This document shows, piece by piece, positions 48,765 to 57,540 of a DNA stretch of 64,000 bases. Source of the DNA: Alphaproteobacteria bacterium (GTDB lineage Bacteria > Pseudomonadota > Alphaproteobacteria > CAAHEQ01 > UBA3637); assembly GCA_045638265.1 (NCBI GenBank), contig JAZUBA010000077.1:4655-68654 (forward strand), read 5' to 3'. The position numbers and the translations under genes are program-made. Position 1 is the stretch's first letter, and each line of letters starts with the position of its first letter. The notes below the pieces were generated by a model. It searched no databases. It was not told the origin of the DNA and worked only from the letters and a program-made list of their open reading frames with translations.

Positions 48765-48792
48765 TTGTCGCATAATTTTTATTATGTTAACT
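48765..48792. other. dif site (XerC/XerD chromosome-dimer resolution site), functioning as attL of an integrated element
   Basis: TTGTCGCATAA-TTTTTA-TTATGTTAACT versus E. coli dif GGTGCGCATAA-TGTATA-TTATGTTAAAT: 22/28 identical, XerD arm 10/11, with an internal CATAAT/ATTATG palindrome. Confidence 0.7.
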
Positions 48793-48923
48793 TGTAGTTA
48801 ACATGATGAAAGTTTTATCACTTAAAATTTAACATTTCTTATCTGAAAGCGAGGTGTTTATAAAATCAATGGTATAATTAAGGTATTATTTGTTTTAACT
48901 TTTTTTAAAAAAGGAGTCTAACC

Positions 48924-49379
48924 ATGAAAAACGAATCCCAAGTCTTTTTTGAAAATATTTTAAACCAATTAAAAGATATTCAAATCAAACATACGGCAAT
49001 TTTAAACGAAATAAACGCCGTACAACAACAATCACGTATTTTGGCTGAACTGGTAGCCTGTTTTTTAAATAACCCGCTGTACGTTAAAAAAAACGCCCTT
49101 ATTGTGCGTTCTATTAACTCATATCTGAAAACTGGTTTAAATTTAGACCAAGCCATGATTAAAACGTCCGAAAGATTGTGCGAATCGTTCAGACGTTGCC
49201 AAGTTGTTTATAACGTGGAAAAAAATCATGAAAATGTAATGAAACAGTATGCAATCCGGCACATGGTTTTGACGCTTGCAAAAAATGGATTTTCCAAGCG
49301 CCAAATTGCCAAAATATGCGGTTTTTCCGAAAAATATCTATACGATTTTATCAAGAAAAACAAGGAGAAACAACGTTAA
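48924..49379 (+). CDS. Hypothetical protein with a C-terminal HTH-like segment (phage regulator?)
   Basis: FSKRQIAKICGFSEKYLYDFIKK; 151 aa; GGAG RBS; first gene inside the dif-bounded element. Confidence 0.4.
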   Translation: MKNESQVFFENILNQLKDIQIKHTAILNEINAVQQQSRILAELVACFLNNPLYVKKNALIVRSINSYLKTGLNLDQAMIKTSERLCESFRRCQVVYNVEKNHENVMKQYAIRHMVLTLAKNGFSKRQIAKICGFSEKYLYDFIKKNKEKQR

Positions 49380-49522
49380 TTGAACCAACCAATAAACGTT
49401 GAAATGAAACTCATTAAATCACCCGTACCGGTTAAATATGAACCGATAGATGTAAAAATATATCCCCAAAACGATTTATTTTTGATTGTAGCCTTGATTT
49501 TATCTTTCATGCCCTACCCCCC

Positions 49523-49717
49523 TTAAAAAAATGTCATTTGTTGCTGTGAGCGTCTTTTTGTGCGTTTTTTGACCGTCTTTTTTTTCGGTTTAGCTGTCTT
49601 TTTTGTTTTTGACTTCATTTTGTTGTATATTTTCTTGCGTTCTTCTGCCGGCAATCCTTGCGTCATGCAAGCCCAATACGCCTTTTGGTATTTTCTATAT
49701 AATGCTGTTGTTGTCAT
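49523..49717 (-). CDS. Small highly basic protein (KKTAKPKKKTVKKRTKRR tail), possible DNA-binding/packaging protein
   Basis: 64-aa ORF at the end of the phage late block. Confidence 0.3.
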   Translation of the reverse strand: MTTTALYRKYQKAYWACMTQGLPAEERKKIYNKMKSKTKKTAKPKKKTVKKRTKRRSQQQMTFF

Positions 49718-49896
49718 TTGTGATATCCCTCCAATTTTTTTAGACGTTCATCGTACATGTTAATTTTAAATTCAATCTTTAAAATTCTTGTTTCAATGCG
49801 CATTACCTGAAACAAGATAATGATTGATATCCCGAAAGCCCCGTATGTTTCAATTAACGTTTCTATCATTTCAAATACTTCTTCCAAACATACCAA
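49714..49896 (-). CDS. Small hydrophobic phage protein
   Basis: 60 aa with one TM-like segment (AFGISIIILFQV). Confidence 0.3.
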   Translation of the reverse strand: MVCLEEVFEMIETLIETYGAFGISIIILFQVMRIETRILKIEFKINMYDERLKKLEGYHK

Positions 49897-50078
49897 CCAG
49901 CAATACCTAATACGCCGGCAATAACTAAATCTTGATTATCTAATTGCTTATTTTGTGTTATTACGCCATTTTCGGCATTAATAATTACATCTGGATTATC
50001 GGTTGCATTATTTATTACTGTTCCGATATATGCCCCACCAAAAAATGCTCCTACAACTCCCAAAACTACCGGTAACAT
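49866..50078 (-). CDS. Holin-like small membrane protein
   Basis: 70 aa with two glycine-zipper TM segments (LPVVLGVVGAFFGGAYIG, LVIAGVLGIAGWYVW); immediately downstream of the lysin. Confidence 0.4.
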   Translation of the reverse strand: MLPVVLGVVGAFFGGAYIGTVINNATDNPDVIINAENGVITQNKQLDNQDLVIAGVLGIAGWYVWKKYLK

Positions 50079-50089
50079 AAAAAGACCTC

Positions 50090-50611
50090 CTAAACATAAA
50101 ATACGTGGTTTCCAATCTCTGCCGTTTTTGTTAATCTATCCGCCCAATACGGTTTTATTGATTTTGCGTGATAATGCGTTGCCCCGCCTGAATAGTCGTG
50201 CAAACCCTCATTTAATGCCGTTGTTGCCAACTGATGCAAGTACGCAAATATAAAATCACTATCAACTGTTGCATTAATCATTTGATTATAATTTGATAAT
50301 TCTGTTTTATTTGTTGTGCCGACTGTTTTTGCATTCCAGCAACTGAATTGATACGGTTTTAATACAACATCTTCAACTGTTGCCCCGTACCAACCGCCCT
50401 TTTTAACCCTGTTTAAAATTGTTGACATGACCGCCTGTTGACCGGTTGACGTTTCGCCCCTCGCCTCACCGTATACCGTCCTTGCTAATAAATCAATTTC
50501 ACGCGCTTTTGCTGTATCGTTTGTTGTTGTATATTCTTTTCTTAACATTCTATACCCCCAATAAACACCCAATATCAAAATAATTGTTTCACCTGCTTTA
50601 TTGTACTTCAT
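50090..50611 (-). CDS. Cell-wall hydrolase of the SleB/CwlJ (Hydrolase_2) type, a phage endolysin
   Basis: ARTVYGEARGETSTGQQAVMSTILNRV...YQFSCWN matches the Hydrolase_2 signature. Confidence 0.75.
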   Translation of the reverse strand: MKYNKAGETIILILGVYWGYRMLRKEYTTTNDTAKAREIDLLARTVYGEARGETSTGQQAVMSTILNRVKKGGWYGATVEDVVLKPYQFSCWNAKTVGTTNKTELSNYNQMINATVDSDFIFAYLHQLATTALNEGLHDYSGGATHYHAKSIKPYWADRLTKTAEIGNHVFYV

Positions 50612-50618
50612 CTGTCGC

Positions 50619-50999
50619 CTACTCCGTTATATACGGATTATCTTCCCGAATTTCGTCTTTTTTAGTTAGCCAATTTTGTTTTGCTTCAATAGTGCGTTCG
50701 TCTTCTTCCCCATATCTTGCCCTATTTTCATCGTAATCAAATTTAATCGGATCAGCCTGTTCAATATATAGGTTTTGACGCCGTTTTTTAATTTCATCAT
50801 TTAATTCATCAATTGTAGGTTCTGGAAGTTTAACAACACAATATTCATCATCAATTTCTTGAATAGTATATTTACCGCTTAAATTACACCATTCAGCAAC
50901 TTGTGAATATTCCTCTTGCTTTTCTTCAATTTCTGATTTTTTTATTTTCCAATTTTCGTATGACATTGTTAAACCTCCTAATAACCGATTGCAAACCAA
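50619..50999 (-). CDS. Acidic hypothetical phage protein
   Basis: 126-aa ORF. Confidence 0.4.
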   Translation of the reverse strand: MVCNRLLGGLTMSYENWKIKKSEIEEKQEEYSQVAEWCNLSGKYTIQEIDDEYCVVKLPEPTIDELNDEIKKRRQNLYIEQADPIKFDYDENRARYGEEDERTIEAKQNWLTKKDEIREDNPYITE

Positions 51000-56369: not shown

Positions 56370-56433
56370 TTTTTTTCTCCGTTGTTAAAATTTTTTCTCA
56401 TACCTAAAATCACACTCCATTTTTTGCCGAGCA

Positions 56434-56669
56434 TTTACAACCTACACGTACGCACATACGCGTACGCATAAGCGCACGCCTGCACACGCCCACATTCTTT
56501 CAAAAAATTCTTTATTTTTTTTATTATTTAGGGTGCAATTTTTGCACCCTCCCCCCGGTGCAAATTTTGCACCCTTAACACAAGCCTGTGGATAACTCAC
56601 TTTTTTACTTAAAAAACAATACTTTAAATCACGAAAAAACGCCGTTTTTCGTGATTTGCCTGTGGATAA
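56434..56669. promoter_or_regulatory. Putative replication origin of the phage-like element
   Basis: GC-rich iteron-like TACGCA repeats (56441-56495), an A/T tract, palindromes GGGTGCAATTTTTGCACCC (56531-56549) and GGTGCAAATTTTGCACC (56557-56573), perfect DnaA boxes TGTGGATAA at 56587-56595 and 56661-56669, and hairpin CACGAAAAA-acgccg-TTTTTCGTG (56630-56653). Confidence 0.45.
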
Positions 56670-56709
56670 CTCTGTTGATAAGTCATTTTTTATCATATTT
56701 TTCAATCCT

Positions 56710-56997
56710 TTATTCGGGGTTATAATTAATAAAATATCCGTTGCTTGTAGTGCGTCCAATAATGCCCTTGTAAAATCTTGTTTGTTTTGTTAAATAACCA
56801 TATTCTTCTAATCGTTTTACGGCATAAATAGCACTTCTTTTGCAACAACCAACATCTTCTGCTATTTTATCATAAGCAGGCCAACAATACCCTTTTTTGT
56901 TTGAACGATAATTTAATGATGCCAATACAAGAATATCCGTTTTTTTCAAACGTGTATCCCCTAACGCTCTTGCTGGTATGTTAACAATATTTGCCAT
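56710..56997 (-). CDS. Winged-helix/HTH DNA-binding protein (phage regulator or replication-initiation helper)
   Basis: MANIVNIPARALGDTRLKKTDILVLASL...CCKRSAIYAVKRLEEYGYL. GAGGT RBS 7 nt before the ATG at 56997; the track start 57039 lacks an RBS. Confidence 0.55.
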   Translation of the reverse strand: MANIVNIPARALGDTRLKKTDILVLASLNYRSNKKGYCWPAYDKIAEDVGCCKRSAIYAVKRLEEYGYLTKQTRFYKGIIGRTTSNGYFINYNPE

Positions 56998-57075
56998 TTT
57001 ACTAACCTCTAACTGGTAGTTAATATTTTTACTAACCATAAATTAGTAAAAAGTACTTGTCAAGAACTTTTTTTT

Positions 57076-57089
57076 ATGTTATATAACAT
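57076..57089. promoter_or_regulatory. Perfect 14-bp palindrome (candidate operator) in the divergent switch region
   Basis: ATGTTATATAACAT lies between the divergently transcribed HTH genes within a 189-bp AT-rich intergenic region carrying several -35/-10-like hexamers. Confidence 0.35.
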
Positions 57090-57186
57090 AATGTGCTGTT
57101 GAACATCTTATATAGGCTCCTAAAATATTCTTTTTGTTACGTTATAATAAAAATTTTATCCTCTACAAAAAAATATGGAGGATAAC

Positions 57187-57462
57187 ATGAATTTTCAAAA
57201 CTATGTAAATTTAGCAAAAGTAAAAAATAACATTTCTTCAAACAATAAAGTTGCAAAATGTATAGGCATTTCAAGTGCTGCAATAACAAATTTCTGTTTA
57301 GAAAAATCAACACCTAGCCCACATACCGTTTTAAAACTTGCAAACCTTGCCGGACTTGATGAAAAGGAAGTGTTTTTAGAATTAATGCTTTCAAAATACG
57401 GCAAATTTGAAAACGTGAAAAAAGTCTTAATTGACATTAAAAATATTACTTGTAAAAAGTAA
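57187..57462 (+). CDS. XRE/Cro-C1-type HTH regulator (phage repressor/Cro-like)
   Basis: NKVAKCIGISSAAITNFCLEKSTPSPHTVLKLANLAGLD. GGAGG RBS then ATG at 57187; the track start 57175 is inside the RBS. Confidence 0.6.
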   Translation: MNFQNYVNLAKVKNNISSNNKVAKCIGISSAAITNFCLEKSTPSPHTVLKLANLAGLDEKEVFLELMLSKYGKFENVKKVLIDIKNITCKK

Positions 57463-57512
57463 AAAATTTTTATTTTATAGCATTTTATCAAATACTAACT
57501 ATTAACCTAGTA

Positions 57513-57540
57513 GAGTGATAAAATTTTTATTATGTTAACT
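57513..57540. other. Pseudo-dif site (attR): conserved spacer and XerD arm, degenerate XerC arm
   Basis: GAGTGATAAAA-TTTTTA-TTATGTTAACT. The last 19 nt are identical to the dif copy at 48774-48792; the XerC arm matches only 5/11. Confidence 0.6.

Follow-up and report, generated by a model that had tools for sequence, protein, structure and literature searches.

We describe here a prophage lodged at the dif site of an alphaproteobacterial chromosome, within a 64-kb stretch of contig JAZUBA010000077.1 (assembly GCA_045638265.1, positions 4,655–68,654) that was analysed as a whole and is referred to below as the window. The element extends from window position 48793 to 57540 (8,748 bp). It is very probably a temperate Vinavirales prophage, the circular genome of which integrates at dif through the XerC and XerD recombinases of its host as an IMEX (integrative mobile element exploiting Xer recombination). 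An earlier note on this DNA had proposed an integrase-less phage at dif that was not an inovirus. This is now strongly supported: among 46 loci that we fetched for comparison (L001–L046) are an empty site, the junction of the circular form and nine more integrated relatives.

The borders of the element are given by a direct repeat. The 19-nucleotide (nt) sequence AATTTTTATTATGTTAACT is present in exactly two copies in the window, at 48774–48792 and 57522–57540 in direct orientation, which confirms the identical termini claimed previously. Allowing up to three mismatches brings the count to 4, where 0.41 are expected, a number reached in none of 100 shuffles. One of the two imperfect matches lies on the minus strand directly beside the left copy (48796–48814). 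The left copy ends a 28-mer (48765–48792, plus strand) that reads TTGTCGCATAA-TTTTTA-TTATGTTAACT, that is, XerC arm, 6-bp spacer and XerD arm. This is attL, the regenerated chromosomal dif, and its last 19 nt are the crossover core. At the other end, attR (57513–57540, plus strand) begins with a phage-derived, degenerate XerC arm, GAGTGATAAAA, and continues as TTTTTA-TTATGTTAACT, identical to dif. The two 28-mers have 22 of 28 positions in common and all six differences fall in the XerC arm, in agreement with the original description of the right site as the same spacer and XerD arm behind a degenerate XerC arm.

Within the window, TTGTCGCATAA-N6-TTATG is matched in full by the left site alone. 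Its identity to Escherichia coli dif, put at 22 of 28 positions in the earlier note, came to 21 of 28 in a recount against what we take to be the E. coli sequence. The element had also been said to be richer in guanine and cytosine (GC) than its flanks. This holds against the adjacent AT-rich intergenic DNA (GC 0.347 versus 0.25–0.26) but not against the rest of the window (0.336), and in composition the element does not stand out from the genome. Neither border carries a tRNA gene, the only one in the window being at 33.1 kb, which excludes a tRNA-targeting island.

All four att forms could be assembled. The empty site, attB, comes from a prophage-free, closely related strain (L042, a 59-kb contig), which was reached through the cluster of the near-identical neighbouring MBL-hydrolase protein. 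Here positions 48764 and 57541 of the window are joined via a single dif, TTGTCGCATAATTTTTATTATGTTAACT (junction sequence TTGTCGCATAATTTTTATTATGTTAACTAATATAC), exactly the uninserted locus that had been predicted. Gene order in L042 is tmk, holB, tatD, MBL, a 573-amino-acid (aa) open reading frame (ORF), the single TTGTCGCATAATTTTTATTATGTTAACT, a 326-aa ORF and ValRS. Its flanks are 96% and 91–93% identical to those of the window, the two BLAST alignments overlap by exactly the 19-nt core, and attL is identical to this attB at 28 of 28 positions. The ORF beside attR in the window (574 aa; 57803–59527, plus strand; GC 0.30) has no Pfam or NCBIfam match; since its 573-aa version is present in the prophage-free strain, it is chromosomal and not part of an IMEX array.

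The circular junction, attP (GAGTGATAAAATTTTTATTATGTTAACTTGTAGTT), had likewise been suggested as a check and was found in metagenome contigs. L001, a Logan contig of 8,198 nt that is ~90% identical to the element, contains CTAGTGGAGTGATAAAATTTTTATTATGTTAACTTGTAGTTAACATGATG, in which a single core copy links the right end of the window element to its left end; the BLAST pieces again overlap by exactly 19 nt. Its attP, GAGTGATAAAA-TTTTTA-TTATGTTAACT, is the same 28-mer as attR of the window. The terminal overlap of L001 itself is just 18 nt, making its circularity less certain. Five other relatives (L046, L034, L035, L010 and L045) are circularly permuted contigs whose terminal overlaps (141, 87 and 30 nt) equal assembler k-mer sizes, and these contigs are therefore circular. 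Circular assemblies of relatives measure 8.2–8.9 kb; the genomes of Vinavirales are circular double-stranded DNA of ~8–12 kb. Scans of JGI metagenomes for the predicted empty-site junction and for the dif 28-mer gave no match.

These sites suggest the following route. The phage circle would carry one attP, placed between an XRE-family gene and the gene for a 151-aa helix-turn-helix (HTH) protein and made up of a canonical XerD arm, a 6-bp spacer identical to that of host dif and a non-conserved XerC arm, the 'left-armed' type. Host XerC and XerD, whose presence is assumed because dif is conserved, would pair attP with dif near the terminus and swap strands within the 19-nt identical core. We infer both this catalysis and the order of strand exchange; the 151-aa protein may serve as an activator. 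The XerC-side product, attL, is a perfect dif, and chromosome-dimer resolution would therefore be kept. The XerD-side product, attR, bears the degenerate XerC arm and, judging from other IMEXs with a degenerate arm, should disfavour FtsK-driven excision. Full identity of the 6-bp spacer would allow both exchanges of strands to be completed and makes the reaction reversible in principle; the prophage is presumably inducible. Once excised, the circle would replicate from a DnaA-box origin with an HTH_36 initiator, a P9-like ATPase would package the genome into a double jelly-roll capsid, and exit would be by a SleB-type lysin and holins.

The same arrangement recurs in nine further independent integrated relatives that have both ends on the contig and come from metagenome-assembled alphaproteobacterial genomes, mostly of gut origin. 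With the window copy, ten integrated copies are known. Each of the nine is bordered by a full host dif at one end and by a pseudo-dif at the other, 7.7–8.4 kb apart. Host dif in all nine is TTGTCGCATAA-N6-TTATG.., and eight of them have an identical spacer, L017 differing at two of six positions. Two classes can be distinguished. In class A (the window, L002/L003, L009 and L019 and, more weakly, L017 and L018) attP keeps the XerD arm and spacer and has a degenerate XerC arm. In class B (L012, L016, L020 and L021) attP keeps the XerC arm and spacer, and it is the XerD arm that is degenerate. One junction is a perfect dif in both classes, and the orientation of the prophage relative to dif switches along with the half of dif that is mimicked. 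Prophages of L002–L004 adjoin the same MBL-tatD-holB-tmk genes as that of the window. The L004 copy is the same phage as in L002 and L003, and its far end abuts a Glycos_transf_4 gene (L004 positions 14377–16374), where the equivalent end in L002 has a 152-aa regulator gene and dif; this end of L004 is either a rearrangement or a chimeric assembly.

The element is a complete PM2-like (Vinavirales) genome, that of a tailless phage with an internal membrane, and is syntenic gene for gene with the PM2 annotation. Its identity is exemplified by the 290-aa protein (53812–54684, minus strand) that was previously a capsid candidate and proves to be a double jelly-roll major capsid protein. The AlphaFold2 model of this protein (pLDDT 93.6, pTM 0.91) has PM2 P2 as its best PDB match (2vvf_A; E 7e-17, TM 0.77/0.82), followed by the capsid proteins of PBCV-1, STIV and PRD1. 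Sequence-level links are weak. Pfam P2_N and P2_C match weakly, hhalign of the capsid family with PM2 P2 gives a probability of 29%, tblastn against 50,697 phage records found no match, and a profile search against PDB sequences returned just low-scoring WD40-repeat artefacts. Exact-protein look-ups of the capsid protein, a 320-aa left-flank protein and the 574-aa right-flank protein found no record.

The soluble 226-aa ATPase (54890–55570, minus strand) is of the FtsK/HerA type, with a Walker A motif GASGCGKT (phrog_2666, E 7e-21; DUF87/HerA, E 2.6e-5). It resembles PM2 P9 (BLASTP E 7e-5 over 151 aa) and is a P9-like genome-packaging ATPase encoded upstream of the capsid gene. Between the ATPase and capsid genes lies a small ORF of ~30–42 aa with a hydrophobic helix (54699–54827, minus strand), at the PM2 P7 position and with 29–31-aa equivalents in relatives. 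Downstream of the capsid gene are three membrane proteins of 220, 89 and 84 aa (52621–53797, minus strand) at the positions of PM2 P10, P8 and P3. Each has a C-terminal transmembrane helix, and their hydrophobic 19-mers score 1.3–2.2 on the Kyte–Doolittle scale. A 191-aa structural protein (52046–52621, minus strand) is a vertex or penton candidate; it has no family match in Pfam or PHROGs, and its length and position are conserved (192 aa in all relatives). The spike or fibre protein (353 aa; 50978–52039, minus strand; Gp53-like_C, E 4.5e-10; BppL_N, E 1.2e-7) combines repetitive beta-helix-like repeats with a receptor-binding C-terminal domain and is the most variable gene among the relatives. 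It is followed by a 126-aa phage-conserved protein (50619–50999, minus strand; phrog_2432, E 6e-9).

The lysin announced by the earlier note is a SleB-type cell-wall hydrolase of 173 aa, an endolysin (50090–50611, minus strand; Pfam Hydrolase_2, E 1e-21; phrog_938 endolysin, E 1.4e-23). Next to it are three small ORFs of 64, 60 and 70 aa (49523–50078, minus strand) at the PM2 P17 and P18 positions, two of them with a hydrophobic helix, which are holin or lysis-factor candidates (maximum Kyte–Doolittle 19-residue score 1.7–2.1). The early region, on the same strand, has two ORFs with equivalents in relatives (55856–56369), one of 119 aa with CxxC...C/H motifs and no Pfam match and one of 58 aa. 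A probable replication origin follows (56440–56700, minus strand), a region that is non-coding in relatives. It holds a DnaA-box sequence, GAGTTATCCACAGGC, in two exact copies and one degenerate copy, together with a pair of GGGTGCAAAATTTGCACC palindromes, a hairpin of 13 bp and a tract rich in GC. Beside it is the gene for a replication-initiator-like winged-helix protein of 95 aa (56710–56997, minus strand; HTH_36, E 1.2e-15; phrog_428/391 replication initiation, E 1e-14); its start was set by alignment with relatives, the ORF extending to 57039.

While early and structural genes occupy one strand, the lysogeny side, consisting of the XRE gene, attP and the 151-aa gene, occupies the other. 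The XRE-family HTH protein (95 aa; 57175–57462, plus strand; HTH_19, E 1.6e-6; HTH_3, E 7e-4) is a repressor candidate at the PM2 P16 position; its gene is the last before attP, as it is in relatives. The first gene after attP (48924–49379, plus strand), kept beside attP in relatives, occupies the PM2 P15 position and encodes the 151-aa regulator-like protein, which has a C-terminal HTH (HTH_23, E 6.6e-5). This protein is 100% identical on 7 contigs, and the homologues found are near-identical ones only. It was rejected as a homologue of P15/XafT: hhalign to PM2 P15 gives a probability of 5.8%, and there is no match to DUF3653 (XafT) at E ≤ 0.1. Its AlphaFold2 model is too poor for a fold search (pLDDT 64.6, pTM 0.33), and positional analogy to P15 is all that remains.

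The cargo is not that of an inovirus, as the earlier note had recognized. In addition to the double jelly-roll capsid and the soluble P9-type ATPase, searches of the element with Pfam and PHROGs found no Zot/pI morphogenesis ATPase, no small filamentous coat proteins and no rolling-circle Rep. An Rfam scan of the element returned nothing, and a scan for promoters and terminators showed no enrichment.

The window copy, seen in assembled sequence, might be a fixed, defective remnant unable to excise or to form virions, and the start of its ATPase gene does overlap a questionable upstream ORF. We regard this as unlikely. The genes in common with L001 are all intact and colinear, the 151-aa protein is unchanged on all of its seven contigs, and both att sites are undecayed, with 19 of 19 core positions retained. 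Moreover, presence or absence of the prophage is polymorphic between strains whose flanks are ~96% identical.

A further feature of the circular form is a palindrome at attP. An inverted, diverged copy of the attP 28-mer, here called site 2, lies at 48796–48823 on the minus strand (reverse complement AAGTGATAAAA-CTTTCA-TCATGTTAACT), so that attP, a 3-nt loop and site 2 form a 27-bp stem in the circle (DNA fold −17 kcal/mol, z = −7.0). L002 and L045 are built in the same way with different arm sequences; hence, the arms co-vary. Palindromes measure 27–29 bp across the three lineages (window/L001, L002 and L045), and the imperfections in their stems are T·G wobbles in 12 of 12 cases (3, 4 and 5). 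The wobble T is always in the true attP, and the wobbled strand is the sense strand for the two flanking regulator genes. On the opposite strand the same positions are A·C mismatches and the fold is 4–4.5 kcal/mol worse. Site 2 is changed in its spacer and in the innermost positions of the XerD arm (TTATG to TCATG, CTATG or CCACG) and therefore looks disabled as a Xer site, with the hairpin kept. After integration only the inner 17–19 bp of the stem stay together at attL. The palindrome is less biased in L027 and reduced to a 13-bp stem in L034 and L035; no long palindrome was found in L009, L012 or L016–L021, nor at the attP region of PM2. The outer arms (AGTGATAAAA) were also considered as a repressor operator repeated at promoters, an idea that was dropped as there are 14 matches against 14.7 expected and none in promoter regions.

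That every imperfection is a T·G wobble on one and the same strand points to a hairpin under selection as a single strand, be it of RNA or of DNA. It is conceivable, if doubtful, that the palindrome marks a mechanism undescribed for double jelly-roll IMEXs: a single-stranded or cruciform attP like that of CTX-phi, or a hairpin of RNA, whole in the circle only and split by integration. If the latter were true, the phage could tell its integrated from its free state and control the regulator downstream of attP accordingly. Integration itself could proceed as in CTX-phi, the hairpin of attP and its inverted copy being the substrate on which XerC exchanges one pair of strands, the product then being resolved by replication. 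The 27–29-bp palindromes and their one-stranded wobbles speak for such a reaction, but we consider it very unlikely. The double-stranded attP is already complete, with a spacer identical to dif, so that folding is not needed. L009, L012, L016–L021, L034/L035 and PM2, in which the palindrome is absent or short, still integrate at dif. The packaging ATPase and the origin with its DnaA boxes argue for a life cycle based on double-stranded DNA, and the hairpin lies in a transcribed intergenic spacer, where a role as RNA explains the wobble bias equally well.

The setting of the target bears on whether it is the genuine dif. Cumulative G−C, calculated with the element removed, climbs to a maximum at 42 kb, is flat until the 48.8-kb site and then drops; GC skew is +0.046 to the left of the site and −0.127 to the right. 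attL is thus within 7 kb of the cumulative maximum (42–49 kb region), and such a profile marks a replication terminus. In its XerC arm, TTGTCGCATAA, the site is the same as the Magnetospirillum dif listed by Carnoy & Roten 2009 (PMC2731167), and the whole 28-mer, aligned as had been proposed, fits the alphaproteobacterial dif entries of that study. We take the site to be the true dif because of the switch in GC skew together with this fit. The same XerC arm and architecture are found, once per locus, beside every related prophage in other host species.

The precedent of Jorvik, whose attB lies in the RuBisCO operon, raises the question of whether the target is instead a secondary dif-like attB and not the site of dimer resolution; 64 kb of genome were inspected, and another dif could lie elsewhere. 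This is highly improbable for a site that is intergenic, sits at the GC-skew switch and matches published alphaproteobacterial dif, and whose XerC arm and architecture are kept beside related prophages in different hosts as well as in the uninfected strain.

On the chromosomal side of dif there is also a conserved CAAAGTTATCCACA motif with a perfect DnaA box, TTATCCACA (48698–48710). In the window, L042, L002, L009 and L015, which represent five host strains or species, the motif lies 49–62 nt beyond the XerC arm and is kept although the adjoining genes differ. Such boxes number four in the 64-kb window, two of them in the phage origin. This dif-adjacent box is a small testable lead and, with the wobble-biased attP palindrome, is among the only unexpected items of the analysis.

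Absence of an element-encoded recombinase was assessed in two ways. Searches with Pfam and PHROGs, which covered ORFs of at least 70 aa other than the 84- and 89-aa membrane proteins, found no integrase, transposase or rolling-circle Rep. A tblastn search with what we take to be the XerD sequence found no tyrosine recombinase in any of the six frames of the window and of the 46 loci. The statement that the element has no tyrosine or serine integrase, transposase or rolling-circle Rep therefore stands at the sensitivity of these scans. That an unrecognized recombinase or directionality factor of the element, be it the 151-aa HTH protein or an ORFan, does the work without XerCD is scarcely credible: several ORFs have no family assignment and the 151-aa protein faintly matches the HTH region of DNA invertases (phrog_125, E 1.8e-4), but this match spans the DNA-binding HTH only and no catalytic domain, every unassigned ORF is either small or codes for a membrane or structural protein shared with PM2, the crossover falls exactly in a Xer-type arm–spacer–arm site with spacer identity, and tblastn of the 46 loci found no tyrosine recombinase.

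Some observations weigh against XerCD-mediated integration at dif as presented here. The pseudo-sites of the distant relatives L017 and L018 are weak (19–20 of 28 positions). Uniqueness of dif was seen only within the window and the 20-kb loci. Five ORFs of 42–64 aa, as well as the 84- and 89-aa transmembrane proteins, are outside the family-library scans. No xerC, xerD or ftsK was found in the window or the fetched loci, which is expected for 64 kb. Finally, circular contigs could in principle derive from tandem prophage arrays instead of free circles.

The capsid family comprises 65 clusters in the protein collection, many of them on ~8-kb contigs; a scan of IMG/VR with the capsid protein alignment found no relative. 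Among GTDB species genomes, the family is present in metagenome-assembled genomes (MAGs) titled Alphaproteobacteria bacterium, Proteobacteria bacterium CAG:495 and Candidatus Scatocola, the last placed in Rhodospirillales by NCBI. Named MAG sources of the relatives are sheep, roe deer, chicken and Hadza gut. L010 and L013 are free phage contigs (one circular, 8,339 bp) that were binned into Acutalibacteraceae and Elusimicrobium MAGs, which is probably mis-binning and not evidence of host.

An intracellular host, as assumed in the earlier note, is unsupported: the related loci come from MAGs of uncultured Alphaproteobacteria, many from animal or human gut. At 43135–46746 the window has genes for a protein with ankyrin repeats and for a valyl-tRNA synthetase of archaeal type (alt_ValS), and these probably prompted the idea of a Rickettsia-like host. 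Also in the window is a 323-aa protein (37296–38267, plus strand) with the Pfam domain of Tad4, a type I Thoeris inhibitor (E 2.4e-6). Its gene is in an AT-rich stretch at 36–38 kb (GC 0.28), is present in L042 too, and the region may be a remnant of another mobile element.

The novelty suggested for an IMEX-style phage with another morphotype does not hold, since double jelly-roll phages that use XerCD and dif have already been published (PMC9966536, PMC10589892, PMC12715192). Krupovic & Bamford 2007 had raised the CTX-phi precedent for integrase-less PM2-like elements. XerCD use was subsequently proposed for the NO16-like vibriophages (Asemoviridae; PMC9966536) and for Jorvik of Rhodobacter (PMC10589892), which is now in Mestraviridae (PMC12451628). 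A survey of 258 Vibrio prophages and PM2 distinguished full-length, left-armed and right-armed attP and defined a P16/attP/P15 lysogeny module, the genes of which become the prophage termini (PMC12715192). For the Vinavirales prophages of gut Alphaproteobacteria, Yutin et al. 2022 concluded that integration mechanisms "remain unclear" (PMC9502842).

Documenting all four att forms fills this gap left by the 2022 census with a worked case of how the tailless prophages that are commonest in gut Alphaproteobacteria enter the chromosome. The hijacking of Xer by double jelly-roll phages, described before for marine Gammaproteobacteria and for Rhodobacter, is thereby extended to a gut-associated clade, within which close relatives switch the dif arm that they mimic. 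On the practical side, the pair of dif and pseudo-dif fixes the exact borders of prophages that are wrongly delimited by automated tools, and it yields a dif consensus for an uncultured lineage, TTGTCGCATAA-N6-TTATGnnTAnn.

The Vibrio phages, PM2 and Cr39582 (PMC12715192) and the NO16-like phages (PMC9966536) share with the window element the lack of an integrase, dif as target and one junction that regenerates dif. These phages also have attP between P16-type repressor and P15-type regulator genes and a PM2-type structural module. Left-armed attP, as in the window, is known from the Vibrio dif phages, along with full-length variants and with right-armed ones as in class B. Whereas the hosts of this group are marine Gammaproteobacteria, that of the window is an alphaproteobacterium. 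Compared with the group, the capsid protein has no sequence-level similarity by tblastn, with weak Pfam P2 links only; an unrelated 151-aa HTH protein replaces the P15/XafT-like regulator, and the lysin is of SleB type and replication features are HTH_36 and DnaA boxes. The long, wobble-biased attP palindrome of the window lineage is not described for the group.

The element also resembles the Vinavirales prophages of human-gut Alphaproteobacteria. Clade A, the proposed Mestraviridae (PMC9502842), likewise consists of ~8–9 kb prophages in alphaproteobacterial hosts with a double jelly-roll capsid and ATPase, a SleB hydrolase in place of P5 and a P16-like regulator. The SleB lysin was named as a hallmark, a distinct regulator, TR_Z1, was placed at the P15 locus and replication genes were reported to be swapped frequently in the same study (PMC9502842). 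At the TR_Z1 locus the window has its 151-aa HTH protein, a candidate counterpart that is unrelated to P15. The element fits this clade by gene content. Jorvik (PMC10589892) is a circular double-stranded DNA membrane phage, also of an alphaproteobacterium, with no integrase and with dif-like attP and attB. Its attB is inside the RuBisCO operon and varies in position between hosts, in contrast to a target that is dif at the GC-skew switch, and no similarity to the capsid protein was detectable for Jorvik in the phage collection.

Outside the double jelly-roll phages, the closest parallels are TLC-phi and the gonococcal genetic island (PMC9226527, PMC6744903), in which the spacer is also fully identical to dif and one attP arm is degenerate. 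Full spacer identity makes complete, reversible XerCD recombination possible for these two but not for CTX-phi (PMC9226527), and the degenerate arm is thought to protect them from FtsK-driven excision (PMC9226527, PMC6744903). Their divergent arm is that of XerD, whereas in the window it is that of XerC; L012, L016, L020 and L021 of class B are TLC-like in this respect. No XafT/DUF3653 homologue was detected in the window element, and neither of the two is a double jelly-roll phage, TLC-phi being a satellite phage and the gonococcal element a genomic island. CTX-phi also uses dif without an integrase and has two inverted dif-like sites at attP that can fold to a hairpin. It is, however, a filamentous phage of single-stranded DNA that carries Zot and coat genes, all of them absent from the window element, and its attP exists only as a folded single strand with a partly homologous spacer; the double-stranded attP described here is a complete site, and its inverted copy looks disabled. 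Set against these systems, the element is not of a new kind but is a well-delimited, new dif-targeting double jelly-roll phage in a host clade for which the mechanism was previously unstated.

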